Shown here in pieces: positions 9,345 through 46,210 of a stretch of DNA of 51,913 nucleotides. Origin of the DNA: Bacteroidota bacterium (GTDB taxonomy: Bacteria > Bacteroidota > Bacteroidia > Cytophagales > Microscillaceae); contig RDXI01000018.1 of NCBI GenBank assembly GCA_004292795.1, forward strand, positions 1-51,913. The letters are read 5' to 3'. Positions within the stretch are counted from its first letter, which is position 1. Each line of letters starts with the position of its first letter. The notes under the pieces were generated by a model. That model saw only the letters and a program-made list of their open reading frames with translations. It was not told the DNA's origin and did no database searches. A program made the position numbers and the translations under genes.

Positions 9345-9382
9345 TACCCTTACAAGGGTATTTTTATACCCTTGTAAGGGTA
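9345..9382. promoter_or_regulatory. Two adjacent perfect 16-bp palindromes (TACCCTTACAAGGGTA and TACCCTTGTAAGGGTA) spaced 22 bp apart. This is a candidate operator in a divergent intergenic region.
   Basis: Perfect dyad symmetry seen directly in the sequence. The site lies between the lipoprotein gene (minus strand) and the DJ-1 gene (plus strand). Confidence 0.45.
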
Positions 9383-9545: not shown

Positions 9546-10292
9546 ATGACAGACGATAAGAAACTCATTGTAGCCTTCCCGCTCTATCCCGGTTGCACCC
9601 TTGTAGATTTCGCAGGGGCTACTCAAATTTTTGCCGCGCCCTCCAGTGGCTTCAAACCAGTTTGGTTAGCTAAAACCTGCGAGCCTGTAGAAACCTCTGA
9701 TGGGGTTTCTGTAATGCCTAATGCTACCTTTGATGATTACATGAAAAAAAAGGAAGAGAAGGAAAAAATAGCTGTAGTATTCGTACCCGGAGGAGAATAT
9801 GAAGGAGTGGCTAAGGCTATGGCAGACGAAGCACTCCTGCAATTTCTTCACAATACAGCCTCGCCTGATACCTGGACAGGCTCAGTGTGTACGGGAGCGT
9901 TTATTTTGGCAGCTGCAGGAATTTTGCATGACTGTGAAGCTACTACTCATTGGGCGGCAATTCCTGTACTCCAAATGTTGTCTGAAAAACTAAAACTAAC
10001 AATACCAGAGGGCTATCCGCGTGGCGTGGCAAAACACAGGCATAAACCTTTTACAGGTGGAGGCATTTCATCATCTTTAGACCTTGCTTTAGAGATTGTG
10101 ATTGCACTCAAAGACAGAGAACACGCAGAAAAATCGCAACTGTTAGCTCAATATCAACCTGATCCGCCTACTTGTGCTGGAGACCCCAATCACGCGCCTG
10201 CCGAGATGGTAGAAGCCATGCGCCAAGCTGGGAAAGCATCACAAGAAATTTTAGTAAAAGCCGTCAATAAATTACTTAATTCTCATTCATAA
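9546..10292 (+). CDS. DJ-1/PfpI family protein (class I glutamine amidotransferase-like fold)
   Basis: Nucleophile-elbow context SVCTGAFILAAAG with a following His (TTHW). Length 248 aa. Confidence 0.75.
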   Translation: MTDDKKLIVAFPLYPGCTLVDFAGATQIFAAPSSGFKPVWLAKTCEPVETSDGVSVMPNATFDDYMKKKEEKEKIAVVFVPGGEYEGVAKAMADEALLQFLHNTASPDTWTGSVCTGAFILAAAGILHDCEATTHWAAIPVLQMLSEKLKLTIPEGYPRGVAKHRHKPFTGGGISSSLDLALEIVIALKDREHAEKSQLLAQYQPDPPTCAGDPNHAPAEMVEAMRQAGKASQEILVKAVNKLLNSHS

Positions 10293-10871: not shown

Positions 10872-11309
10872 ATGCAAAAACTACTTTTGTTCCTTCTGCT
10901 TGCTTGCCTCTCGCCTGCTTTGGTAGGCAAGCCACTAACCTTGCCTACAGATACTATAAACAACCATCAAATTTATTTGAATAAAAAGCCTCTTTTGTTT
11001 GCCAATGCAAACATGAAAAAAGAGGAGCTAACAATATCGTTGGCAAAGAAAAGCCTCAAAAATACGGATAAGCTTGAAGTGGTCTATGGTACTTGCACGC
11101 GAAGCTATGAAAAACATCAGCTATCTTTGAAAAACGCACAAGGTAAGACAGTTTGGAAAACTTCCACACACATACACCAAAATCCCTGTTTCCGTTTTGC
11201 TACAATCCAAAGAAAAGGAAGTGAGCTTATATTTCGGGAAAGTGTTTTTAGCCAAAATAACCCTGCGTTGAGCCTTTCTTGCCTGCGTTTTGGGGTAGGC
11301 AAGTTGTGA
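10872..11309 (+). CDS. Hypothetical small secreted protein
   Basis: Start set at the Met that precedes a hydrophobic signal-like segment (MQKLLLFLLLACLSPALVG). The upstream extension to 10803 lies inside the repeat. Confidence 0.4.
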   Translation: MQKLLLFLLLACLSPALVGKPLTLPTDTINNHQIYLNKKPLLFANANMKKEELTISLAKKSLKNTDKLEVVYGTCTRSYEKHQLSLKNAQGKTVWKTSTHIHQNPCFRFATIQRKGSELIFRESVFSQNNPALSLSCLRFGVGKL

Positions 11310-13156: not shown

Positions 13157-16064
13157 ATGCCTCTCAAGTTAGACTTCGCGGACAGGTTCGAGCAACGTCA
13201 TCATGGCACACGCGCCCAAGACATTGCTGAAATGCTCCAAACCATTGGCGTACAAAGCCTTGACGAACTGATTGAAAAGACCGTTCCTGCGTCTATTCGC
13301 CTTCCCAAACCTATCAAGGTTACAGCCCCCAAAACAGAACAAGAATTTTTGGCTGATTTCAAGAAATTGGCAGGCAAGAACCAAGTGTTCAAATCGTTTA
13401 TAGGTATGGGCTATTATGATACGCACACGCCTAACGTTATTTTGCGCAATATCCTTGAAAATCCGGGTTGGTACACCGCCTACACGCCTTACCAAGCCGA
13501 AATAGCACAAGGTCGCCTCGAAGCCCTTATCAATTTCCAAACGATGGTTATGGATTTGACAGGTATGGAAATTGCCAATGCTTCCCTGCTTGACGAAGGC
13601 ACTGCGGCGGCTGAAGCTATGACCATGCTTCACAGCTTGCGCAAAGGCACACGCAAAAGTGCAGAAACGTTTTTTGTGTCGGAACTTTGCCACCCGCAAA
13701 CCATCGATGTACTAAAAACCCGCGCTACACCGCTTGGCATCAACCTATTGATAGGCAATCACGAAACTGTCGACCTTACCTCGCCTGAAATCTACGGCTT
13801 GCTTCTGCAATATCCTGCTACCAATGGCGAAGTATTCGACTACACGAACCTTATCGCCACAGCAAAAGAACTCGGCATTTTTACCGCAGTAGCGACTGAC
13901 TTGTTGGCTCTCACTATCTTGAAAGCACCCGCTGAAATGGGCGCAGACGTGGCAGTGGGTTCTGCACAACGCTTGGGCGTGCCTATGGGCTATGGCGGAC
14001 CTCACGCGGCATTTTTTGCTACCAAAGACGAATACAAGCGACAAATTCCCGGGCGCATTATTGGGGTTTCCATAGATGCAGAAGGCAACAAAGCTTACAG
14101 GATGGCGTTGCAAACCCGCGAACAGCACATCAGACGCGAAAAAGCTACTTCGAATATCTGTACTGCCCAAGTATTGCTTTCTGTGATGGCGAGTATGTAC
14201 GGCGTATATCACGGACCTAAAGGCTTGCGTACTATTGCGGAACGTGTGTATGGCTTGACGCAACTTACCAAACAAGGGCTTGAGAAATTGGGCTTCGAAA
14301 TTGAGAACAAATATTATTTCGATACCATCACGGTTGTCTTGCCTGCTGACAAAATAGAGGCATTGCGCAAATCAGCTGAAAAAGTACAGATAAACTTCCG
14401 CTATTATGCAGAAGCAGGCAAGGTAGGAATCAGCTTTGACGAAGCCAAAACTACTGATGATGTAAACGCTATTTTCAAACTCTTCACCGCAGTAGGTAAG
14501 GAGCAAACCACGAAAGAAAAAACTGCCTTCACGACCTACACAAAAAGCCTTGCCAAAAACATCGAAATTCGCTTGCCTGATGACCTTATCCGCACAAGTG
14601 ACTACATGACGCACCCTGTTTTCAATACGCACCACACCGAACACGCGATGTTGCGCTATATGAAGCAGTTGGAAAACAAAGATTTGTCGTTGGTACATTC
14701 GATGATTGCGCTCGGTTCTTGCACGATGAAACTGAACGCAACGGCAGAAATGATACCCGTAACGTGGCGCGAATTTGGAGGCATACACCCCTTCGCTCCT
14801 CGCACACAGGCGCAAGGCTATACTGAATTGTTTACCAATTTGGAGAAATGGTTGTGCGAAATCACAGGCTTTGCGGGAACGAGCTTGCAACCCAATTCGG
14901 GAGCGCAAGGCGAATACGCGGGCTTGATGGCTATTCGTGCTTACCTACAACACAAAGGCGAGTCCGCTTATTCCTTCTTCGGCACATGGCACAAACCCTG
15001 CGAGTGCTGTCATGGCAGGTATGCAAGTAATTGTAACGAAATGTGACGAACATGGCAATATCGACTTGGCTGACCTTCGCGCCAATGCCGAAAAATACAA
15101 AGATAACCTTGCCTGCTTGATGGTTACGTATCCCTCGACTCACGGAGTTTTTGAGGAAGCTATCCAAGAAATATGCTCGATGATACACGAGTTTGGCGGA
15201 CAGGTATATATGGACGGTGCGAACATGAACGCGCAAGTGGGGCTTACCTCGCCTGCTATGATTGGCGCAGACGTTTGTCATTTGAATTTGCACAAAACAT
15301 TTTGTATTCCGCATGGAGGCGGTGGTCCTGGTATGGGTCCTATTTGCGTAGCTTCGCATCTTGTGCCTTTCCTACCTCACCACGCTGTAGTGTCTTTCTC
15401 CAATAGCAAAGAAACAGCCGTTTCTGCCGCGCCTTGGGGCAGTGCAAGCATCTTGACTATCTCGTATGCCTACATAGCCATGATGGGAGGCGAGGGCTTA
15501 ACCAACGCTACCAAAATGGCAATCCTCAATGCCAATTACATCAAAAAACGCCTCGAAGGGCATTACAACGCGCTGTATGCAGGCAAGAATGGTACTTGCG
15601 CCCACGAATTTATAGCCGATTGCCGAGATTTCAAGGCGCAAGGCGTAGAAGTGGCAGACATGGCAAAACGTTTGATGGATTACGGTTTCCACGCGCCTAC
15701 GGTTTCCTTCCCTGTGGCAGGCACACTCATGATAGAACCTACCGAGAGCGAAGACCGCGCAGAATTGGATAGATTTTGCGAGGCTTTGATTGCCATTCGT
15801 GAAGAAATACGCGAAATAGAGGCAGGCAAGGCTGAAAAAGGCAACAACGTTATCGTAAACGCGCCTCATACGGCTTTGATGGTTACCGCTTCGAATTGGG
15901 AAAAACCCTACTCACGCGAAAAGGCGGCTTATCCCCTTCCTTACCTGCGCGTAGGCAAGTATTTCCCTGCTGTTGCCAAAATAGACAACGCATACGGGGA
16001 CCGCAATCTCGTTTGTGCGTGTATTCCTGTAGAGGAGTACGCGAGTGAGGAGGCTGTGGCGTAA
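13157..16064 (+). pseudogene. gcvP: Glycine dehydrogenase (decarboxylating), the glycine cleavage system P protein. It is disrupted and split into two overlapping ORFs (13157-15046 and 14937-16064).
   Basis: Full-length colinearity with GcvP across both ORFs: GMGYYDTHTPNVILRNILENPGWYTAYTPYQ, the PLP site [18 protein letters not shown], and the C-terminal [10 protein letters not shown]. The frame changes at about 14960-14972. About nine conserved residues are missing there; E. coli has RNEGHRDIC between ES and LIPASAHG. Confidence 0.8.
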
Positions 16065-16075
16065 CGAACTTTTTT

Positions 16076-16121
16076 AGGTTGTTTGTAGTTATTGTAAAAA
16101 GGCTACAGACAACCTTTTTTA
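16076..16121 (+). terminator. Terminator downstream of gcvP
   Basis: Stem aggttgtttgtag/ctacagacaacct with one mismatch, followed by tttttt. Confidence 0.55.
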
Positions 16122-16151
16122 TCTCTTTCTAACCTAAAAACAATCAATCCT

Positions 16152-17345
16152 ATGAAAGAAACTAACCATTTATTTGAAGGCGAAGAATTTGCGCTTAATA
16201 CTCCAAAGGGGAGCAATATCATTCAAATCTCTGATGAAGATATTAATCAAAAATACAGACGAGGTGAAATACGCATTGTTACAGAACAAGCGCGTTATCC
16301 CCTTGATAGTATTGAAACTATGTTAGATACTGGTAAATACATATTAAATCCTGAATATCAACGTAGAAAACGTTGGGATAATGTGAGAAAATCTCGCTTA
16401 ATTGAGTCGTTTATTATGAATGTCCCTATTCCCCCTGTTTTTTTGTATGAGGTGGATTATTCAAAATATGAAGTAATGGATGGGCAACAACGCCTTACCA
16501 CAATTTATGATTTTTATCAAGGTAAATTTGAATTAGAAGGATTGGAACTCTGGAGCGAGCTAAATGGTAAAACTTATCAAAACCTTCCTGAACAAGTAAA
16601 AGGAGGTATAGATAGGCGTTATCTTTCTTCTATTGTGTTATTAAGAGAAACAGCCAAAAATGATATAGAAGCAGAAGAATTAAAAAAAATGGTCTTTGAA
16701 AGACTAAACAGTGGCGGGGAAAAATTAACCCCACAAGAAACAAGAAATGCTATATACAATGGGAAATTTAATCAATTGTGTTTGCGATTAGCAAAAAGTG
16801 ATGCTTTTAGAAAAATGTGGGGCTTGCCATTGGAAAGTGATAGTGAGATTAAAAAATTAAAAAGCGAACCATATAGAAAAATGGAAGATGCAGAATTAGT
16901 TTTAAGATTTTTTGCTTATCGTCATGTAAATGAATTAGTTTCTCCAATAGATAAGTTCCTTGATGCTTTTTTAGATAGAGCTAATAGCTTTTCTGATAAA
17001 CTTATGCAAGAACTTGAAGACATATTTATAAAGACTATAGATTTAATATATGCTATTTTTGGAAAAGATGCGTTTCTTTTGCCTATTAAAGTTCTAAAAT
17101 ACAAAACACCTTCAAAAACTGTATATGATCCTATGATGCAAGCATTCTCTACAAATTTACAGCATAAAGATATTTTGTTAGCTAAATGTGATGAGGTGAG
17201 GCGAAAAAGGTATGAAGACACAGATGTTCTTTTTATATCAGATAGTAAGTATTTATTTGATGGAAGGAAAAATAACAGAAATGATGTAATAGAGCGTATA
17301 GAATATTTTGATAAATTTATCAAATCATTTATCGAAACAACATGA
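16152..17345 (+). CDS. DUF262 (ParB-like nuclease/NTPase superfamily) domain protein
   Basis: PEYQRRKRW and DGQQRLTT are the signature motifs of DUF262 (PF03235). It has no DUF1524/HNH C-terminal domain. The gene is AT-rich. Confidence 0.75.
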   Translation: MKETNHLFEGEEFALNTPKGSNIIQISDEDINQKYRRGEIRIVTEQARYPLDSIETMLDTGKYILNPEYQRRKRWDNVRKSRLIESFIMNVPIPPVFLYEVDYSKYEVMDGQQRLTTIYDFYQGKFELEGLELWSELNGKTYQNLPEQVKGGIDRRYLSSIVLLRETAKNDIEAEELKKMVFERLNSGGEKLTPQETRNAIYNGKFNQLCLRLAKSDAFRKMWGLPLESDSEIKKLKSEPYRKMEDAELVLRFFAYRHVNELVSPIDKFLDAFLDRANSFSDKLMQELEDIFIKTIDLIYAIFGKDAFLLPIKVLKYKTPSKTVYDPMMQAFSTNLQHKDILLAKCDEVRRKRYEDTDVLFISDSKYLFDGRKNNRNDVIERIEYFDKFIKSFIETT

Positions 17346-18178
17346 ACCAGTTTTCCCTTGACAAATTCAAAAACGAACTTTCTCAACTGCGTGCATACCT
17401 ACAACACATTCAAAACGTGAATGAAGTGATAGGTTATGCACCTGTGGAAACAGATAGCGAAGTTATAACTATGCTGATAGAAAAGTTAAGAAAACAAGAG
17501 TTTGATAGTAATTTTAGAATAAATAGAAAAACTTTTGAGTACAAAGCAGTTATTATATCGCTGTATGGTACTCTCGAAAGAACTATAGAAAATTGGGTAA
17601 AGGAATATCTTGATGCTTTGTCGGGTATTGTTACAGATTATGCTAAACTTCCTGATAAAATAAAAGATAACCACTTTAAAAATTCTCTTGAATTGATTAC
17701 CGATAAATTAAGCAAAAAAGACATAGCTCCAAAATACCAACATTTGAGAAAAGAGGAGGTTTTGAAAATACTGAATCAATGTGTAGAACAAGGGACAGAG
17801 TATAAATTTAATGCAGATGCTTTTTTATTATCTTCTGGGAATTTAAAACATGATAAAATAGCACCAATATTAGCAAATTTGGATATAGATTTGAAACAAA
17901 CTACTTTTCTAAAAGATAAATCTGAAAATGAAAAAAAAGCTATCTATGCTCTCATAGATGAACTTGTAGAAAGGCGTAATGAAGTAGCACATGGTTCTGA
18001 TAGTGTTATTGACAACTTATTAGAAGTATCTTTAATTGAAGAACATATCATCAACTTAGAGATTTATGTCAGTGCTATATTTGACATTCTCAATCAAAGG
18101 CTTATCCGTTTTGAAGCTGAGGAGTCAGGGGCTTTTTTTTTTAGTAAACATAGCGAAGGATACGGTTTGGCAACATAA
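17342..18178 (+). CDS. HEPN-domain protein (predicted RNase)
   Basis: Its start overlaps the DUF262 stop by 4 bp (ATGA). An Rx4H motif (ERRNEVAHG) lies near the C-terminus within an all-alpha context. A T10 run at 18133-18142 joins this frame to the downstream ORF 18066-18422. Confidence 0.55.
   Translation: MNQFSLDKFKNELSQLRAYLQHIQNVNEVIGYAPVETDSEVITMLIEKLRKQEFDSNFRINRKTFEYKAVIISLYGTLERTIENWVKEYLDALSGIVTDYAKLPDKIKDNHFKNSLELITDKLSKKDIAPKYQHLRKEEVLKILNQCVEQGTEYKFNADAFLLSSGNLKHDKIAPILANLDIDLKQTTFLKDKSENEKKAIYALIDELVERRNEVAHGSDSVIDNLLEVSLIEEHIINLEIYVSAIFDILNQRLIRFEAEESGAFFFSKHSEGYGLAT
18133..18142 (+). repeat. T10 homopolymer at the junction of the HEPN ORF and an out-of-frame downstream ORF
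   Basis: gggg-ctttttttttt-agt. A one-nucleotide slip would fuse the HEPN protein to about 95 extra residues (LVNIAKDTVWQHK...KNNQK). The downstream ORF has no start codon of its own. Confidence 0.7.
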
Positions 18179-18431
18179 AATTGTAGGCATTTTTTTAGAG
18201 GATTATACAGTCAAAATAGATGATTTCGTACTTATTGAAACACCTGATAAAGAATTTTTAAAAGAAAGGATAGTAGGAATAGGAACGGGGAGCGGTAAGG
18301 ATTTAAAGAAACATACAAATCTTTCTGTTATAGATAAAACAGAAGTAGCTATTATCGTCAATGCTCATCTAAGTAACAATGCAAAGTCCCATAAATTCTA
18401 TTTGAAAAACAATCAAAAATAGAATAAAACT

Positions 18432-20751: not shown

Positions 20752-20848
20752 AGGGGCAACCCTTGTGGTTGCCCTTTGTGTAAATACGCATTTTTATTTT
20801 AAACACGATTTGTGTCCGAAAAAGGGCAACCACAAGGGTTGCCCCTAC
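20752..20848. repeat. Pair of inverted REP-like hairpins (GGGGCAACCCTTGTGGTTGCCC and GGGCAACCACAAGGGTTGCCCC) separated by 40 bp
   Basis: Hairpins at 20755-20775 and 20825-20845 are reverse complements of each other. A third copy forms the terminator at 1946-1976. Confidence 0.75.
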
Positions 20849-20926
20849 ATTTTGAAATTTCTGTATATTTTTTGTGGCGTGTGTACTCACGCGCCATATT
20901 TTTCTAAAACAAAACAACCTTCGAAT

Positions 20927-22291
20927 ATGAAAATCAAACAACTGAACATAGAGAACTACAGGGGCTTCGAGCAGGCAAGCATTACCTTTCCCGACAACAA
21001 TTTGGCTGTTTTCATTGGCGCGAATGGAGCAGGCAAGACGAGTGTGTTGGATTTGGTGGCGAGTTTTTTGGAGGATTTTTTGTTGGGGATACATAACTAC
21101 TATCCTTTACAAAATAAAGAAATTAACCATAAAAAAGGTGTAACAAATGAATTTATCAATATTATAAATGAAGCAAATGCTAAATATTCTTTTGGTATCA
21201 CACATACAAACGAATTTGCCTTTGATGAAAAAGACTTAAAATATAGGGCAAAAGAATTACATAGTAAGATGTTTTTAGAAAATATAGAATTATCCAGAGA
21301 TATTACTGGAAATGGCTTATACTCAGAAAGACAAATTTTTACACCTGAAATTAAACTGAAAAGAACAAAGGAAATATTAGGAAACCCATTGTTTAGCACA
21401 CCAATTTTTGTTTATTTTCAGTTAAATGTTACTAAAGCTAAACGAGAAAGATATTACTCAATTCCGCAACTTGCTGTTTATGAGGAACTTACATCAAATA
21501 TAAATAATTTTGCTGTTTTCAAAGCTTGGTTCAAGCAAGAAGAAGATTTTGAAAATCAAGAAAAAGTAAACCAAGAAAATCTTGCCTACCGAAACCCCAA
21601 ATTAGAGATAGTTCGAAAGGTATTGGAAACTTTTTTCCAAAAAATAGAAAGTCCCGTTTTTGCCAAAATGCGCATACACAGGCAAGGAAGTAAAATATTT
21701 GATTTCAATAAAAAATTTTCAGCAGATAGTTTATTGATTGATAAAAATGGACAACCTTTCGAGATAGAACGACTTTCTTCAGGTGAAAAATCGTTGATGC
21801 TTTTGGTGGCTGACATAGCGAGGCGATTGTCTATAGCCAATCCTGCGTTCTCGCCTACTGAAGCCCTGCAAAAAGGCGAAGGCGTGGTGTTGATAGACGA
21901 AATAGAGCAACACTTGCACCCGCGTTGGCAACGTTTGGTCTTGCCTGCCCTACAAACCACATTTCCGAATGTACATTTTATTGTTACTACTCATTCGCCC
22001 CAAATAGTGAGCAGTGTTCCGCGTGAGAGCGTTTTTATTTTGGATAATTTCCAAATAAAAGACTACAAACCTTACACACAAGGACGCGACAGCAATTCTA
22101 TTTTACAAGATGTGTTCGGGGTGGAAACTTATCCACAAGCGTACAAAGAAAAATTGCACCAATTACATCAACTTATCCATGATGAAAAAGCAGACCAAGC
22201 CCAAAAGTTAATGCAAGAACTTATCAGTTATTGGGGCGAAAACGACAGGGAAATAAAACGCGCTCAATTATATTTAGAGGACATTGTATGA
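20927..22291 (+). CDS. ptuA: Septu defence system ATPase PtuA (AAA_15/AAA_21-type ABC-like ATPase)
   Basis: Walker A FIGANGAGKTS. Walker B and H-loop VVLIDEIEQHLHP ... TTHSP. The start is set at the ATG after the hairpins, and the ORF-track extension to 20765 is spurious. There is an AT-rich internal segment. Confidence 0.75.
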   Translation: MKIKQLNIENYRGFEQASITFPDNNLAVFIGANGAGKTSVLDLVASFLEDFLLGIHNYYPLQNKEINHKKGVTNEFINIINEANAKYSFGITHTNEFAFDEKDLKYRAKELHSKMFLENIELSRDITGNGLYSERQIFTPEIKLKRTKEILGNPLFSTPIFVYFQLNVTKAKRERYYSIPQLAVYEELTSNINNFAVFKAWFKQEEDFENQEKVNQENLAYRNPKLEIVRKVLETFFQKIESPVFAKMRIHRQGSKIFDFNKKFSADSLLIDKNGQPFEIERLSSGEKSLMLLVADIARRLSIANPAFSPTEALQKGEGVVLIDEIEQHLHPRWQRLVLPALQTTFPNVHFIVTTHSPQIVSSVPRESVFILDNFQIKDYKPYTQGRDSNSILQDVFGVETYPQAYKEKLHQLHQLIHDEKADQAQKLMQELISYWGENDREIKRAQLYLEDIV

Positions 22292-38057: not shown

Positions 38058-38071
38058 TTATCGAACATAAA

Positions 38072-38107
38072 AGCAGGCAAGATGCGAGTCTTGCCTGCTT
38101 TGTTTTT
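38072..38107 (+). terminator. Terminator of the GCAGGCAAGA...TCTTGCCTGC stem family
   Basis: agcaggcaaga-tgcgag-tcttgcctgct followed by ttgttttt. Confidence 0.7.
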
Positions 38108-38144: not shown

Positions 38145-38699
38145 TTACTTTATGTGAGCAAAATGTTCTCTTGCGTACACAAACCGTTTATCTGGTGGAA
38201 ATAATGAAGTTTCCACAACAGGTCCCGTAACGTGATTGCATACCAACCTTGCATCTGCAGGTTGGGCTTCCCAACACAATGGATTAACATTTTCTCCGAA
38301 AACTGTACGCAATACCTCCAATGTGTAATCATATAGAGTAGCCATAATCCTTACATCTTCAGGTTTGTCATGATCTAATGGTTCATGGTGCATATAATAG
38401 CCCATGACCTCAGAACAAAATTTCTTATAACGTGGTGTATCGAGAATGTGAGCGTGCCAATAAGGATCAACAACATCTGATATTGCATGCATATTTGCAG
38501 AATTTATAGCACCTATAGCATAATACTGTTTCAAAGCGTAAACAGCATCTTCAGCAGGTATAGGTATTAGTCCTTTAGACCTCAGTTCTTTTTCTGCAAA
38601 TTTTACCACAAATGAATAATCTTCTGCATCTATCCCTTTAAGTATAGCCCATTGTTTGTCGCTCAAATCAACTTCTACGGTGTTTGATACCTTCTTCAT
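38145..38699 (-). CDS. Hypothetical protein (184 aa), AT-rich
   Basis: ORF with compositional shift. No motifs recognised. Confidence 0.4.
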   Translation of the reverse strand: MKKVSNTVEVDLSDKQWAILKGIDAEDYSFVVKFAEKELRSKGLIPIPAEDAVYALKQYYAIGAINSANMHAISDVVDPYWHAHILDTPRYKKFCSEVMGYYMHHEPLDHDKPEDVRIMATLYDYTLEVLRTVFGENVNPLCWEAQPADARLVCNHVTGPVVETSLFPPDKRFVYAREHFAHIK

Positions 38700-38875
38700 T
38701 GCATAATTGAAATGTGAATTTTACCTACTCTCTTGCACGCTTTTCGGTTTCCGCGTTCATTTGATACAAAAATATAAGGCTTTTTTGATAAAAACAAAAA
38801 ATAATACATAAAATATTTGTGTTTTATAACACAATTTCAATACATTTGCATCTTAAAACAATACATTTTACTCTT

Positions 38876-39284: not shown

Positions 39285-40304
39285 ATGCTACTTGACCAAG
39301 ACTATTTCGCCTTTTTAGGAGAAGTAAAGGATTTGATACGCAAAGCGCAAATACGCGCAAGCCGCGTGGTAAATAAAGAAATGATAACGCTTTATTGGGA
39401 TATTGGGCGTGTGATAGTGGAAAAACAAGAACTGTTGGGCTATGGTAAGTCTGTAGTGGAGCAACTTTCCAAAGATTTACGCGATGAGTTTCCAAATGTA
39501 GATGGCTTTTCTGCTCGCAATATGTGGGATATGCGTCACTTGTACCTTGCCTACAAAGACGAGCCAATTCTGCGACAGCTTGTCGCAGAAGTTCCTTGGA
39601 AACATAATACCATGATAATGAGTCTAAAAGACAAAGAGGCGCAAGCATTTTACCTGCTGAAAGTGAAAGAATTGCATTGGTCGCGTGAGGTGCTAACCTT
39701 TCAAATCAAAAACAAGGCTTACCAAAACTTACTTACCCAATCTAAAACACATAATTTTGGAAATACCCTGCCCGAAGCCCAAGCAGAGGAAGCTAACAGC
39801 ATTTTGAAAAGTGAATATACGTTTGATTTTTTGGGCTTACAGGAAACAGTTTTAGAAAAGGTTTTGGAAAATAGGCTCATGGAGCATTTGAAACAGTTTT
39901 TGCTTGAATTGGGCTATGGCTTTACGTTTGTGGGGCAACAATACAGAATCGTTTTGGGGCAGAAAGATTATTTTATCGATTTATTGTTTTTCCATAGAAA
40001 ACTCAAATGTTTGGTAGCCATTGATTTAAAAATTGGCGAATTTGAACCCGAATATGCAGGCAAGATGAATTTTTACTTGGAAGTGCTTGATGATACGGTA
40101 CGTATGCCTGACGAAAACCCCTCAATAGGCATTATTCTATGCACCAAAAAAGACGACTTAGAAGTTGAATATTCTTTGAGAAGCCAAAATAAACCTATAG
40201 GCGTAGCAGAATACAAACTATACGAACAACTGCCCGAAGAACTAAGCAAACAACTTCCCTCTGCTAAAGACATCAAAAAATACCTAAACTCCAAAAAGAA
40301 ATAA
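39285..40304 (+). CDS. YhcG/DUF1016-family PD-(D/E)xK nuclease-like protein, paralog 1
   Basis: Typical DUF1016 N-terminus (DYFAFLGEVKDLIRKAQIRASRVVNKEMITLYWDIGR). C-terminal PD-(D/E)xK core YFIDLLFF...LVAIDLKIGEF. Confidence 0.7.
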   Translation: MLLDQDYFAFLGEVKDLIRKAQIRASRVVNKEMITLYWDIGRVIVEKQELLGYGKSVVEQLSKDLRDEFPNVDGFSARNMWDMRHLYLAYKDEPILRQLVAEVPWKHNTMIMSLKDKEAQAFYLLKVKELHWSREVLTFQIKNKAYQNLLTQSKTHNFGNTLPEAQAEEANSILKSEYTFDFLGLQETVLEKVLENRLMEHLKQFLLELGYGFTFVGQQYRIVLGQKDYFIDLLFFHRKLKCLVAIDLKIGEFEPEYAGKMNFYLEVLDDTVRMPDENPSIGIILCTKKDDLEVEYSLRSQNKPIGVAEYKLYEQLPEELSKQLPSAKDIKKYLNSKKK

Positions 40305-40306
40305 AA

Positions 40307-40330
40307 CAGGCAAGACTCGCGTCTTGCCTG
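40307..40330 (+). terminator. Perfect palindrome CAGGCAAGAC-TCGC-GTCTTGCCTG directly after the YhcG-1 stop. No T-tract on the plus strand.
   Basis: 10-bp perfect stem. It is the same stem family as 38072 and 41448. Confidence 0.45.
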
Positions 40331-40433
40331 CTTGGTATGCTCAAAAAAAAATTTTTATTTTTGTTTAATTGAGTATTTGTTATGTATATTTGCATACTTT
40401 ACTTCTTTAAAAATCTCTAACCAAGTAAAAACT

Positions 40434-41447
40434 ATGCGCTCTGAAGATACCCTCTACCAAAATGTTCGCGAAATCATCTTGAACGCGAAGGCAAAAATCA
40501 ACCACACTGTCAATTTTACAGTGGTCGAAACCTATTGGCTTATAGGCAAGTACATCATCGAAGAAGAACAGCAAGGCAAACACCGCGCTGAGTATGGAAA
40601 ACAACAGATGAAACTTTTGGCTGAAAAGCTAACAGATGAGTTTGGTAAAAATTATGATAGAAGCAATCTTTTGCGCATGAAGAATTTTTACCTGCTTTTC
40701 CCAATTCGTGACGCACTGCGTCACGAATTGAGTTGGTCGCATTATCGCTCTCTTTTGCGCGTGGAAAGTGAGCAGGCAAGGCATTTTTATATCGCGGAGG
40801 CTATCTCGAATAATTGGGGAACGCGGGCTTTGGATAGACAAATCAATACGTTGTATTATGAACGCTTGCTTGCCTCCCAAGACAAAACACCCGTGAAACA
40901 AGAGATGTACGACAAAACAAAGGATTTAGCACCCGAAGACATCTTGAAAGACCCCTATATTTTGGATTTTCTGCAAATAGAAACACGCAAAACTTACCTC
41001 GAATCCGAACTCGAACAGGCTTTGATGGACAAGCTAAACGATTTTTTGTTGGAGTTAGGCAAGGGCTTTGCTTTTGTGGGAAGGCAAAAAAGAATAAGCA
41101 CCGAAACGAAAGATTTTTATATTGATTTGGTGTTTTACAACTATATTTTGAAATGCTTTGTGTTGATTGATTTGAAAATTGATGAACTTACACATCAAGA
41201 TATTGGGCAAATGGATATGTATGTGCGGCTTTTTGAGGATAAATACAAAGGTTCAGACGACAATCCGACTATTGGCTTGATACTCTGCACGCACAAAGAC
41301 CAAACTATAGTAAAATATTCAGTTTTGCATGAAAGTAAACAACTTTTTGCCTCCAAATATATGCTTTACTTGCCTACCGAAGAAGAACTAAGAAAGGAAA
41401 TAGAGCGCGAAAAGTATTTGATAGAACGCGAAAGGGCAGATAAATAA
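40434..41447 (+). CDS. YhcG/DUF1016-family PD-(D/E)xK nuclease-like protein, paralog 2
   Basis: Co-linear with paralog 1 (ETYWLIGKYI..., FYIDLVFYNYILKCFVLIDLKIDEL). Start set at MRSED. Confidence 0.7.
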   Translation: MRSEDTLYQNVREIILNAKAKINHTVNFTVVETYWLIGKYIIEEEQQGKHRAEYGKQQMKLLAEKLTDEFGKNYDRSNLLRMKNFYLLFPIRDALRHELSWSHYRSLLRVESEQARHFYIAEAISNNWGTRALDRQINTLYYERLLASQDKTPVKQEMYDKTKDLAPEDILKDPYILDFLQIETRKTYLESELEQALMDKLNDFLLELGKGFAFVGRQKRISTETKDFYIDLVFYNYILKCFVLIDLKIDELTHQDIGQMDMYVRLFEDKYKGSDDNPTIGLILCTHKDQTIVKYSVLHESKQLFASKYMLYLPTEEELRKEIEREKYLIERERADK

Positions 41448-41482
41448 CAGGCAAGACTCGCGCCTTGCCTGCTGTTTTTATT
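41448..41482. terminator. Bidirectional terminator (CAGGCAAGACTCGCGCCTTGCCTG plus T-run) shared by YhcG-2 and the convergent lysS
   Basis: Hairpin followed by ctgtttttatt on the plus strand. lysS stops at 41478. Confidence 0.65.
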
Positions 41483-43202
41483 GCAACCACGCCTCAATTT
41501 CTTCTTTCGTAGCGGGTTTCACACTGTCAAGTTTCATTTTTTTGCGCATACCGCCTATATCGTTTAGGAGCTTGCCTGCGCTTGCCTGCTTCAAGGCTTC
41601 TATAGTCAGGAAGCCCATTTTTTGTAGGATAGGCACAAGCTCTTCGCGCACACCGATAGCAACATAATCAGCAGTTTCTGCCATTTCTGTACGCTTTTCG
41701 GGGCGCATTTGAGGGAAGAAAAGCACATCTTGAATAGATGCTTCGTTGGTCATCAACATCGTAAGCCTGTCCATGCCTATGCCCATGCCTGAAGTGGGAG
41801 GCATACCATACTCAAGGGCGCGAATAAAATCAAGGTCTATGAACATAGCTTCGTCATCACCTTTTGCCGAGAGTTTGAGCTGTTCTTGAAAACGCTCATA
41901 TTGGTCTATCGGGTCGTTCAATTCCGAATACGCATTGCACAATTCCTTGCCATTCACGATAAGCTCGAAGCGTTCTGTGAGTTCAGGATTTTCGCGGTGG
42001 CGTTTGCACAAAGGCGACATTTCAATAGGATAATCCGTGATAAAAGTAGGCTGAATGAGGTTTGCTTCGCAGAGTTCGCCAAAAAGTTCATCAATCAACT
42101 TGCCTTTGCCCATCGAGGGCGCAGTTTCAATGCCTTTTTGTTGGCAGAAGGCGCGGAGTTCGTTTTCAGTCTTGCCTGCTATGTCTATCTCGTTGTTCGA
42201 ATACTTCAAAATGGCATCTCGCATACTTAGGCGAGCAAAAGGGCGTTGAAAATTGATTTCGTTCTTGCCTACCGTTACAGTCGTTTTGCCATGCAACGCA
42301 AGGGCTACCTTTTCAATCATTTCTTCGGTGAAATCCATCATCCAAAGATAATCCTTGTAGGCAACATAAATCTCCATAATCGTAAATTCGGGATTATGGG
42401 TTCTGTCCATACCTTCATTACGAAAATCTTTTGCAAATTCATACACGCCCTCGAAACCACCCACAATGAGGCGTTTCAAGTACAATTCATTCGCAATACG
42501 CAAATACAAAGGCATATCCAGCGCGTTGTGATGCGTGATGAAAGGTCTTGCACTCGCTCCACCAGGAATAGATTGCAAGATAGGCGTTTCTACTTCGAGG
42601 TAGCCTTTGCTATTGAAAAAGTCGCGGAGCGTGCTATAGATTTTAGTACGTTTCACAAACGTTTCGCGTACTTGTGGGTTTACCACAAGGTCAGCATAGC
42701 GTTGGCGATAGCGAAATTCGGCATCAGTAACGGCATCATGCACATTGCCCTCGCTATCTGTTTTCACGATAGGCAAGGGGCGCAAGGCTTTCGCCAAGAT
42801 AACCAAACGCTCTACGTGAATGCTAATCTCGCCTACTTGTGTACGAAAAACATAGCCTTCTACGCCTATGAAGTCGCCTAAATCGAGTAGTTTTTTGAAA
42901 ACTGTATTATAGAGTGTCTTGTCTTCGTCTGGGCAAATATCATCACGGCGAACATAAATTTGTATTCTGCCTGTAGTATCTTGGATTTCAGCAAAGGAAG
43001 CACTGCCTTGCACGCGCATACTCATAAGCCTGCCCGCAAGACGCACCTGTTTATAATTATCGGGTTGTTTATCAAAGTTTTCGAGAATATCCGTAGCGTA
43101 ATGCGTAAGGTGATATTGCGCGGCGGGGTATGGCTCTATGCCTATAGAGCGCATTTGTTGCAACTTGTCGCGCCTTAGTTGCTCTTGTTCGCTGAGAATC
43201 AT
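41478..43202 (-). CDS. lysS: Lysine--tRNA ligase (class II) with a C-terminal extension
   Basis: OB-fold anticodon-binding N-terminus. Class II motifs (FRNEG..., GMGIGMDRLTML). Length 574 aa. Confidence 0.9.
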   Translation of the reverse strand: MILSEQEQLRRDKLQQMRSIGIEPYPAAQYHLTHYATDILENFDKQPDNYKQVRLAGRLMSMRVQGSASFAEIQDTTGRIQIYVRRDDICPDEDKTLYNTVFKKLLDLGDFIGVEGYVFRTQVGEISIHVERLVILAKALRPLPIVKTDSEGNVHDAVTDAEFRYRQRYADLVVNPQVRETFVKRTKIYSTLRDFFNSKGYLEVETPILQSIPGGASARPFITHHNALDMPLYLRIANELYLKRLIVGGFEGVYEFAKDFRNEGMDRTHNPEFTIMEIYVAYKDYLWMMDFTEEMIEKVALALHGKTTVTVGKNEINFQRPFARLSMRDAILKYSNNEIDIAGKTENELRAFCQQKGIETAPSMGKGKLIDELFGELCEANLIQPTFITDYPIEMSPLCKRHRENPELTERFELIVNGKELCNAYSELNDPIDQYERFQEQLKLSAKGDDEAMFIDLDFIRALEYGMPPTSGMGIGMDRLTMLMTNEASIQDVLFFPQMRPEKRTEMAETADYVAIGVREELVPILQKMGFLTIEALKQASAGKLLNDIGGMRKKMKLDSVKPATKEEIEAWLQ

Positions 43203-43226
43203 AAGCGTTTTGAAATTTTTGCAAAA

Positions 43227-43491
43227 ATAGCTTTTTCTTGTGAAAAAGCTATAGCAATTTGATGAACTATAGCTTTTTCTCGTGAAAAAAGCTATAGCAA
43301 TTTGATGAACTATAGCTTTTTCTTGTGAAAAAGCTATAGCAATTTGATGAACTATAGCTTTTTCTTGTGAAAAAGCTATAGCATCTTGTGAAAAAGCTAT
43401 AGCAATTTGATGAACTATAGCTTTTTCTTGTGAAAAAGCTATAGCAATTTGATGAACTATAGCTTTTTTTCTGAAAAACGCAAAAAGCTAT
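43227..43491. repeat. Tandem array of six or seven 42-bp units. Each unit is a 26-bp palindrome (ATAGCTTTTTCTTGTGAAAAAGCTAT) plus a constant 16-bp linker (AGCAATTTGATGAACT). It lies in the lysS upstream region.
   Basis: Direct reading. Units start at 43227, 43269, 43312, 43354 and 43417. A degenerate unit starts at 43459, and a partial internal duplication lies at 43380-43400. Confidence 0.85.
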
Positions 43492-44177
43492 TTATCCTTC
43501 GCACACCTGAAGCCCACGTCATAGCTAAATTCGTCTGAAGGGAGCGAAAGGCGCAGGGAAGGGCGCGAATCTTGTCCCAACTTGCCTGCACGCAGGGCTT
43601 TAGGGCGGTTGAGCTTGCCTTGATAATAGTTAGACTCGCTGTATTCGAAATAAAAATTTTCGCACCATTGCCAAAGGTTTTCGGTAGCGTAGGCAAGTTT
43701 CAACGTTTCCGCATTTTGCAATGCCTTCTCCCATTCGAACTCGGAGGGCAAACGCTTTCCTATCCAATTCGCGTAGGCTTGTGCATCATGCCAACTTACC
43801 TGCCTGACGGGTTCATGCGGTTCGGCTTTTGCCTTGCCTGTGGGGTTTTGCCAAGTTGCGCCTTGCACCTTTTTCCACGTTTGCGCGGTGCTGTCGTAGC
43901 ACACCCCAAAACCGTGCTTTTCGGCAGTGGTGCGGTATTGCGTGAAGCGTATAAATTTTTTAAACTCGCCTACCGTAACGGGCTGTTGGTCGAGCCAAAA
44001 ACCCGCAAGGCGTGTTTCGAAAGCAGGTTTTTCGCTGTCTGTGCCTTTGTCATTGCCTATTTTGGTAGTGCCACCTTGCACCCATACCATACCTTGCGGG
44101 GCTGTCTGCGCCCAAGCAGGCGAGATGCTTAGACAAAGTAGGCAAGAAAAAAAGATAGATTTTGCTGTAGTATTCAT
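43488..44177 (-). CDS. Formylglycine-generating-enzyme (FGE)/sulfatase-modifying-factor domain protein, secreted
   Basis: Signal peptide. FGE-sulfatase motifs LAGFWLDQQPVTVGEF, RLPSEFEWEKA and GFRCAKD. Length 229 aa. Confidence 0.7.
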   Translation of the reverse strand: MNTTAKSIFFSCLLCLSISPAWAQTAPQGMVWVQGGTTKIGNDKGTDSEKPAFETRLAGFWLDQQPVTVGEFKKFIRFTQYRTTAEKHGFGVCYDSTAQTWKKVQGATWQNPTGKAKAEPHEPVRQVSWHDAQAYANWIGKRLPSEFEWEKALQNAETLKLAYATENLWQWCENFYFEYSESNYYQGKLNRPKALRAGKLGQDSRPSLRLSLPSDEFSYDVGFRCAKDK

Positions 44178-45394: not shown

Positions 45395-46210
45395 TTACTT
45401 TCCAAGCTCTTTCCAGTCTTTTTCTGTACTTTGAGGGGAAGTGTAGTAAAATTTATCGTTTTCTTTTTTGATAGCAATGTCGGGCATATCAGGGAAGGCA
45501 AGTTTGGTTCGTTTGCGCAATTCCTTGCTATAGTCAAAACTCATTTCCAACAACAATGCGCCATTTTTCATATTTTGCATAATTTTCTCTGCCAACTGCG
45601 CCATGAGGCGGTTGTCTTTGATAGGCGCGAAGAGATAAATCACGTCTTTGTCTTTGTAGATGTCAGGCGAGGTCTTGACCGCATCTGCATGCACAATATC
45701 GATTTTCTTTTGCTGTATGAACTCTTGCAGGGCGTGTTTGCTAATTTGCACCAATTTTTGCGAATATTCCAAGCCATAGCTTTTCTCAAAACCCCAACAA
45801 AGCGCGGCATAGACCTTTTCGCCATTGCCCGAACCCACATCAAGAAAAGTCTTGTGTTCGGGAGTTTTGAAACTACGCATCACATCACTAAACTTGTTCA
45901 AATCATACAAAACTGCCTTGCTATATTCGGGATTATCTTCTTGCAAATAGTTTTCTACCTTGCCATAAATACAAGTAATAAACTTGCTCTTATAGGCAAA
46001 ATCTTTGCTTTTGAGGCAATAATTGTAAATATCCAACAGGCTCACCTTCAAACTATCCATCTGTTTTTGTATCACAGCATTAGGCGTTTGTAGGTCAGTT
46101 TTGGCTAAGAACTTGGCTTTTATATCGGCGGGTGTTTCAATCCGTTCACAACTAAGGCAAAGGCAGGCAAGCAGGCAAGACAGCAGTATCTTTCGAGTCA
46201 TTTCAGGCAT
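45395..46210 (-). CDS. Class I SAM-dependent methyltransferase-fold protein with an N-terminal lipoprotein signal
   Basis: Lipobox LCLSC. Motif I LDVGSGNG. Post-I acidic IVHADA. Confidence 0.55.
   Translation of the reverse strand: MPEMTRKILLSCLLACLCLSCERIETPADIKAKFLAKTDLQTPNAVIQKQMDSLKVSLLDIYNYCLKSKDFAYKSKFITCIYGKVENYLQEDNPEYSKAVLYDLNKFSDVMRSFKTPEHKTFLDVGSGNGEKVYAALCWGFEKSYGLEYSQKLVQISKHALQEFIQQKKIDIVHADAVKTSPDIYKDKDVIYLFAPIKDNRLMAQLAEKIMQNMKNGALLLEMSFDYSKELRKRTKLAFPDMPDIAIKKENDKFYYTSPQSTEKDWKELGK

Follow-up and report, generated by a model that had tools for sequence, protein, structure and literature searches.

On balance, we favor the explanation that a palindromic tandem array directly upstream of lysS, at positions 43227-43491, is a slippage-driven promoter tandem repeat (VNTR or minisatellite) that was probably built from the palindromic core of the putative lysS promoter. 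The window that we analyzed is the whole 51,913-nt contig of a Bacteroidetes/Bacteroidota MAG deposited at NCBI. The gene order on its minus strand is TauE, an FGE-sulfatase-domain gene and lysS, and the minus strand is the sense strand for both genes that flank the array. The lysS gene (41478-43202, minus strand) encodes a class II lysyl-tRNA synthetase of 574 aa (Pfam tRNA-synt_2, 9e-92, and tRNA_anti-codon) that is identical to NCBI TAE18845.1, a Bacteroidota MAG protein. The FGE gene (43488-44177, minus strand) encodes a 229-aa protein (TAE18846.1; Pfam PF03781, 6.5e-37), is the upstream neighbor of lysS in the source species only, and is separated from it by 285 nt.

The array comprises five hairpins with short loops, a half unit and a distal hairpin with a long loop, arranged with a period of 42 nt and joined by five identical linkers (43253-43268, 43296-43311, 43338-43353, 43401-43416 and 43443-43458). 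Read along the minus strand, the FGE stop codon TAG is followed by the distal hairpin, a linker, H5, the half unit, H4, H3, H2, H1, TTTTGCAAAAATTTCAAAACGCTT and the lysS ATG. H1 (43227-43252), the hairpin proximal to lysS, has an 11-bp stem and a 4-nt loop and fills approximately positions -10 to -35 of the predicted lysS promoter. The internal units form a block (43253-43458) in which H3 (43310-43339), H4 (43352-43381) and H5 (43415-43444) are short hairpins, H2 (43267-43297) is a variant with one extra base, a C/T change and an altered loop, and the half unit (43382-43402) has a 21-nt deletion and retains a left arm and loop only. The distal hairpin (43459-43491) has the arms ATAGCTTTTT and AAAAAGCTAT around a 13-nt loop, and its left arm in the minus-strand reading takes in the FGE stop codon (43488-43490).

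TRF assigned a period of 42 nt to 43227-43383 (3.7 copies, 96% matches) and to 43384-43478 (2.3 copies), and a super-period of 105 nt across 43278-43478. The original prediction had described a minisatellite-like 42-bp tandem repeat of six or seven units between the FGE-domain gene and lysS; the TRF result bears out the period and the minisatellite character, and the unit count holds as well, a degenerate unit and a partial one included. It had divided the unit into a 26-bp palindrome and a 16-bp linker, and both do repeat exactly: the palindrome (ATAGCTTTTTCTTGTGAAAAAGCTAT) four times and the linker (AGCAATTTGATGAACT) five times, with every copy in the 51.9 kb lying in the array (0.00 and 0.12 copies expected from shuffles, respectively). 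No further palindrome copy with up to three mismatches was found outside the array in the 51.9-kb window. The stems, however, reach 13 bp, and the unit is better parsed as a 30-nt hairpin (CTATAGCTTTTTC-TTGT-GAAAAAGCTATAG, 13-bp stem) followed by a 12-nt linker (CAATTTGATGAA). The contig stems from a short-read MAG assembly, the longest perfectly periodic stretch is 126 nt, and all copy numbers given here are short-read assembly figures, those for the window and for L072 (below) not being read-verified. We rejected the possibility that the array is coding: although two sense frames are open in each unit, the frame changes at the 43-nt unit, and no array-spanning ORF reaches 40 aa. As to an origin of replication or dif site, no DnaA boxes were seen and cumulative GC skew gave no clear sign. 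Elsewhere in the window, a two-copy analogue of the lysS hairpin repeat is present at 9345-9382, in the divergent spacer between genes at 8132-9295 (minus strand) and 9546-10292 (plus strand), where a 16-nt perfect palindrome with a T-run (TACCCTTACAAGGGTA-TTTTTA) occurs in two tandem copies.

The array lies directly before lysS, as had been predicted, and overlaps a putative promoter element. A -7 box (TATTTTTG, 43222-43229, minus strand) that matches the TAnnTTTG consensus of the Bacteroidota sigma-A lies 19 nt before the lysS ATG, and its initial three bases double as the final three of H1. In Flavobacterium transcription start site maps the -7 box (TAnnTTTG) spans positions -12 to -5 (PMC9723704), and the position of the box places the predicted lysS start site at an A (43217, minus strand) with a 15-nt leader. 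A motif scan located TAnnTTTGC at a distance of 24-68 nt before ten or more further genes in the window, commonly with a TTTG 19-21 nt ahead of TAnnTTTG. The same -7 box as that of lysS (TATTTTTG) is found at 38774, just upstream of a DUF805b RNA motif (Rfam RF02914, 44.8 bits, above gathering; 38722-38757, minus strand) that precedes a 184-aa ORF (38145-38699) with no Pfam match. The -7 box before lysS is kept as TACCTTTG, TATCTTTG or TATATTTG in L066, L072, L073 and L077, the contigs with which we compared it.

The -33 element is where the array alleles depart from this promoter type. They carry ATAG at the -33 position in place of TTTG, and the layout ATAG-N19-TAnnTTTG is found in all four cases compared; the promoter model is therefore incomplete for these alleles. 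An allele that has no array (L066) does have a TTTG at the expected distance, and the corresponding TTTG in the window (43481-43484, minus strand) is separated from the -7 box by 252 nt as a result of the array. The repeat unit corresponds to the -36 to -10 core of the putative lysS promoter. The internal units continue on the lysS-sense strand into AGTTCATC and contain no TAnnTTTG box, and from these motif matches we infer where transcription starts, that the proximal copy is active and that the upstream copies are silent; only the proximal unit would be a promoter. Local alignment against shuffles (P of ~0.21 for the window and 0.07 for L072) did not support the linker as a decayed copy of the -7/+1 region left by duplication of the whole promoter.

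Other assemblies of the locus were recovered through exact-protein look-ups. The predicted variability of copy number between strains was confirmed: contigs with flanks 95-99% identical carry 0, 3, 3 and ~6.5 hairpins (short-read assemblies). L064 (Logan SRR12360574), which is 98.1% identical to the window in FGE and 99.2% in lysS, has a 137-nt spacer that contains the distal hairpin and two short ones, and a C>T change in one linker is private to it. L067 (ENA ERZ28594680), ~95% identical in both FGE and lysS, also has a 137-nt spacer, in which a U.G wobble is present in one arm and a T>C change in one linker; its three hairpins all differ from each other, which makes the assembly unambiguous. 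One of its loops is inverted: comparison of L067 858-887 with window 43267-43297 gave TCGT against ACGA on the same strand, with the arms unchanged, as would be expected if recombination or a switch of template took place across a perfect palindrome. Two k=31 Logan contigs, L065 (SRR7244347) and L071 (SRR7244356), both end 6 nt into the first internal hairpin, which is where we infer that a k=31 graph would gain a second predecessor if several identical units follow. Downstream of lysS, the window contains two tandem YhcG/DUF1016 PDDEXK nuclease paralogues (39285-41447, plus strand); a single DUF1016/YhcG gene was called in L064 and in L067, and the L067 contig then runs into window sequence upstream of the second paralogue.

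The array-free allele in L066 (Logan SRR30952592) has a spacer of only 54 nt, TAG-CTTTTTGCGTTTTTCAGAAAAAAAAGATACCTTTGCAAAAATTTCAAAACGCTT-ATG, with the promoter TTTG-N20-TACCTTTG. It is 97.7% identical to the window in FGE and 99.2% identical in the first 507 nt of lysS, and the 27 nt that adjoin the FGE stop codon are the same in both. The junction sequence of L066 is absent from every array allele, so that it is not a collapsed assembly. Compared to both array junctions it has 3-4 differences within ~12 nt (GATACC vs GCTATT), and the array-free allele is therefore not a simple deletion product. Since a strain ~99% identical in lysS has no array, the array is dispensable.

A second species (L072, JGI 3300037311), in which LysS is 91% identical as protein and 81% as DNA, has its own array directly upstream of lysS, with 7.3 units of 44 nt (98% matches; a short-read figure). 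Its unit is GATAGCTTTTTT-CAAG-AAAAAAGCTGT followed by the linker AGCTATTTTAAAAATGTG, and all linkers are identical; a head-to-tail arrangement with a constant period is found in the window (42) and in L072 (44). The last hairpin leads into a -7 box (TATCTTTGCAAAAAAC), and the array ends with ...AAAAAAGCTATCTTTGCAAAAAAC before the ATG. The arms (ATAGCTTTTT and AAAAAGCT(A/G)T) are the same as those in the window, whereas the linkers cannot be aligned to those of the window, and the loop-closing pair is C-G in the window and U-A in L072. The upstream neighbor of lysS in L072 is not FGE but a divergently transcribed HAD hydrolase gene, and three contigs in which FGE has other downstream neighbors have no array; the repeat therefore belongs to the lysS promoter. 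The earlier placement of the array at the FGE-lysS junction was right as to position, but the repeat goes with lysS and not with the junction.

We examined the three FGE contigs (L068, L069 and L070; FGE genes 88-98% identical) at the point where they leave the window sequence. Similarity stops exactly after the stop codon, at 43489, and the 3'-end of the FGE gene (43488-43491) is a sharp synteny breakpoint that coincides with the edge of the distal hairpin arm; past the stop codon these contigs carry other genes (HicAB in L069). Among further relatives, L073 has no such hairpin before lysS and retains the -7 box TACCTTTG, L077 likewise has none and its -7 box TATATTTG follows a different small palindrome, and in L074-L076 lysS follows a peptidase gene after a 3-nt gap. 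We also observed that the heptamer AGGCAAG/CTTGCCT (extended form YAGGCAAG, variant AGGCGAG) is ~30-fold over-represented in the window, with 68 and 66 occurrences in 51.9 kb and the strands equal. The heptamer occurs within genes and as inverted pairs that form terminator-like hairpins (for example at 10923-10948, 38070-38101, 40307-40330 and 46163-46179), and it looks like a DNA-uptake-sequence-like or HIP1-like iterated oligomer specific to the lineage. Its density is 1.6-4.8 per kb in the relatives examined (L037 and L064-L077) compared to 0-0.12 per kb in other Bacteroidota loci, and this shared enrichment independently supports a lineage relationship among the contigs compared.

The promoter tandem repeat that we favor could have arisen and been maintained as follows. 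The unit would be the 30-nt perfect hairpin, with the arms ATAG...CTAT at the -33 position and at the start of the -7 box, plus the 12-nt linker. A promoter-proximal palindrome would seed the repeat, and slipped-strand mispairing or unequal recombination between 42-nt units, probably aided by the hairpins, would expand and contract it; the expansion would be tolerated, since a working proximal copy is all that is required. The units are homogenized within an array and diverge between species, which would reflect concerted evolution. The copy nearest to the gene, joined to TATTTTTG, would serve as the lysS promoter, and the upstream copies, which end in AGTTCATC, would replace the ancestral -33 TTTG by ATAG and displace the upstream DNA in steps of 42 bp, or ~4 helical turns each. 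A stack of stem-loops on the sense strand between the upstream gene and lysS, the last with a U-run, may limit read-through, and the upstream DNA is predicted to be strongly curved in this strain. Displacement, hairpin stack and curvature together might then tune lysS transcription with copy number, an effect on expression that we presume from the layout of the locus.

The invariance of the arms suggested explanations of a different kind. The 10-nt arms do not differ between the window, L064, L067, L072 and L037, in contrast to the free variation of loops and linkers, and lysS DNA is only 78-81% identical among the three lineages that share them. Such a pattern would point to a specific protein-binding palindrome, or to recent spread, over neutral slippage. 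We considered an operator array, in which ATAGC-N16-GCTAT, with half-sites 21 bp (two helical turns) apart, binds a dimeric regulator between the -33 and -7 elements of a few promoters, and extra copies bind cooperatively or act as decoys that set lysS expression. The single copy in L037, a contig of the Cytophagales MAG GFS_3895 (the same assembly as L077), is consistent with this. The palindrome there (ATAGCTTTTTC-AGAT-GAAAAAGCTAT-TTTTGCA) lies 40 nt before the ATG of a gene for a low-molecular-weight phosphotyrosine phosphatase unrelated to lysS, between a homogentisate-dioxygenase-like gene and the phosphatase gene; it is at the same distance from the -7 box, and a degenerate version of the hairpin is found at the promoter of the next gene upstream. 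The 42-bp spacing is also close to 4 x 10.5 bp. However, the period in L072 is 44 nt, no candidate regulator lies beside lysS in any locus, and the lysS promoters of L066, L073 and L077 do not have the palindrome, which is therefore not needed for lysS. Besides the lysS arrays and the two L037 sites, no further copy with up to one mismatch per arm was found in the 52-kb window and ~67 kb of fetched loci (~60 kb of them from relatives). We consider an operator array unlikely.

We gave the same low standing to a BIME/REP-like RNA element, in which hairpins on the sense strand act as terminator, insulator or 3'-end protection for the TauE-FGE transcript and isolate lysS. The stems are stable: predicted RNA folding energies are -15.3 to -15.9 kcal/mol for the 30-nt short hairpins, -11.9 kcal/mol for H1 and -8.7 kcal/mol for the distal hairpin. 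Hairpin energies of -9.7 to -15.9 kcal/mol, and a value of -110 kcal/mol for the entire spacer (z = -11 vs shuffles), also count in favor of the promoter repeat. The array-free spacer has no stable FGE-lysS structure (-7.4 kcal/mol, z = -0.4). H1 on the lysS-sense strand runs into UUUUUG and resembles a terminator, but it is the sole hairpin with a U-run, the A/U-rich stems contain 2-3 G-C pairs, and a simple consensus terminator scan called none of the hairpins. The suggested stack of terminators can hold in part at best, since a U-run follows only the proximal hairpin. Three of the four single-side stem changes give G.U pairs in the lysS-sense strand and one pair is exchanged from C-G to U-A; with 8 of the 13 pairs never varying and this one compensatory exchange, there is not enough covariation to establish an RNA structure or to discriminate an RNA hairpin from a DNA palindrome. 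The array in L072 argues against the RNA element, as the upstream gene is divergent and leaves nothing to terminate, yet the array is equally large. Nor is the element dispersed: there is one locus in 52 kb, and no hairpin array was found among 185,579 species-representative genomes, a collection that does not include the source genome.

There is also a small chance that the palindrome ATAGCTTTTT-N4-8-AAAAAGCTAT is a lineage-specific regulatory module, either an operator or an unusual element bridging -33 and -7, that moves between promoters and forms an expandable array at lysS in at least two species. The array is present at the same promoter in two species though it can be lost, and the same module occurs at another promoter. 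The shared module, ATAG-N19-TAnnTTTG with an identical hairpin, measures 33 nt. A scan of the 185,579 representative genomes for the hairpin core (TAGCTTTTTC-N3-6-GAAAAAGCTA) gave 63 loci, all single hairpins; most of them are the same orthologous Flavobacterium terminator, whose loop is 6 nt, and L037 was the sole informative match. Metagenome scans with the unit junction and with a two-hairpin pattern with free linker gave 0 matches in a collection that evidently has none of the relevant samples (the L072 contig was unmatched too), and viral sequence scans gave one unrelated single hairpin and nothing else.

A curved-DNA upstream activator, in which T5/A5 tracts phased at 42 bp would curve the upstream DNA and help RNA polymerase to bind, appeared very unlikely. 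The predicted ratio of end-to-end distance to contour for the 285-nt spacer was 0.32 in a wedge model, similar to phased A-tract controls (0.33-0.39); the mean of genomic windows was 0.87, and 0.25% of these and 3.7% of shuffled-unit arrays were as curved as the spacer. However, any 42-bp tandem repeat accumulates the bend of its unit, and the L072 array (period 44) is predicted to be nearly straight (0.78-0.82 in the same model), so that curvature is not conserved.

It is likewise very unlikely that the hairpin and -7 box came to lysS by insertion, as a mobile promoter of small size or a MITE-like element, and were then amplified in place. The identical module before an unrelated gene in L037 and the FGE synteny breakpoint at the edge of the distal arm would agree with insertion, and the reuse of promoters at non-homologous genes has been described before (PMC3488235). 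Against this, very few copies were seen in the window and fetched loci, no transposase (including RAYT, the Y1 transposase) was found by Pfam among the window ORFs, no target-site duplication is recognizable, and at 33 nt the module falls short of the 50-100 nt by which putative mobile promoters are defined.

That the regularly spaced palindromic repeat on a short-read MAG contig is a CRISPR array or an assembly artefact we regard as practically negligible, because the five linkers that would be spacers are identical, which already refutes a CRISPR as the original prediction had recognized, no cas genes were found by Pfam among 35 large ORFs of the window, no Rfam family including CRISPR-DR matched at gathering (at E<=1 there were only generic hairpins, miRNA precursors, far below threshold), and independent assemblies of other samples, four more of the species as well as the related species, contain the repeat with sequence variants of their own.

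The window contained several other features. An 844-aa protein (4274-6808, minus strand) contains Major Vault Protein shoulder and repeat domains (PF11978, 5.5e-30, and PF17795), which is unusual for a bacterium. The glycine dehydrogenase gene (GcvP; 13157-16064, plus strand) is split into overlapping ORFs (13157-15046 and 14937-16064), suggesting a frameshift from an assembly error or a pseudogene. A low-GC stretch (0.32 vs ~0.43) at 16001-18200 and 20765-22291 encodes a GmrSD-type restriction endonuclease and a HEPN (RiboL-PSP) protein; this stretch, an AAA_15/AbiEii-like ATPase near it and an Eco57I-type methylase domain at 50166-51803 are probably defence islets.

If copy number does tune lysS, the locus would be a clear case outside pathogens of an essential housekeeping gene under minisatellite control, and the alleles with 0, 3 and ~6.5 units would form a natural allelic series in which to study the influence of upstream DNA on transcription from the unusual Bacteroidota -33/-7 promoter. 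Were the palindrome a regulatory module, free-living Bacteroidota would be able to adjust the expression of an essential aminoacyl-tRNA synthetase through repeat copy number, in the manner of a contingency trait. An array that leaves lysS unaffected would be an ordinary intergenic VNTR. Such arrays are mis-called as CRISPRs and break short-read assemblies, as in the two contigs that end inside the array, and they are good strain markers for this uncultured lineage.

The REP/BIME elements of enterobacteria are intergenic clusters of palindromic units with short constant linkers, and their RNA stem-loops can influence the stability of an mRNA or its termination. BIMEs occur as hundreds of dispersed copies in alternating orientation, and RAYT transposases are linked to them. 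The lysS array is similar in its palindromic units, short constant linkers, intergenic location and capacity to form stem-loops. In contrast to REP/BIME elements, it occurs at one locus per ~52 kb with no dispersed copies across the window and fetched loci, has no counterpart in the 185,579 representative genomes and no transposase in the window, and lies upstream of a promoter, whereas BIMEs lie at 3'-ends. The 'false CRISPR' tandem repeats (PMC5294841) share the repeat-spacer appearance that would trigger CRISPR finders, with neither spacer diversity nor cas genes; that class is defined by exclusion and is silent on function, whereas the lysS array is specifically promoter-linked. Putative mobile promoters (Matus-Garcia et al. 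2012, PMC3488235) resemble it in that the same promoter-proximal sequence precedes non-homologous genes, here lysS and the L037 phosphotyrosine phosphatase gene, but only a 33-nt module is shared, in different genomes, and the copies are too few for a family.

The closest likeness is to bacterial intergenic VNTR/MIRU-type minisatellites in general and to promoter tandem repeats, such as the 57-bp copy-number-variable tandem repeats in the M. tuberculosis dop promoter, which are proposed to modulate expression (PMC12817950). In both cases head-to-tail units of tens of bp lie directly upstream of a gene and contain promoter sequence, putative in the case of lysS, and copy number differs between close strains, presumably through slippage or recombination. 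Compared to the dop-type repeats, the lysS unit is a perfect 30-nt palindrome that would reach from the -33 to the -7 element in a sigma-A promoter of the Bacteroidota type, and the upstream copies have no -7 box, so that promoters would not be multiplied. The gene is an essential aminoacyl-tRNA synthetase, and an equivalent array with another linker is present at the same gene in a second species. We conclude that the lysS array probably belongs to the known class of promoter-associated VNTRs, here made of hairpins.
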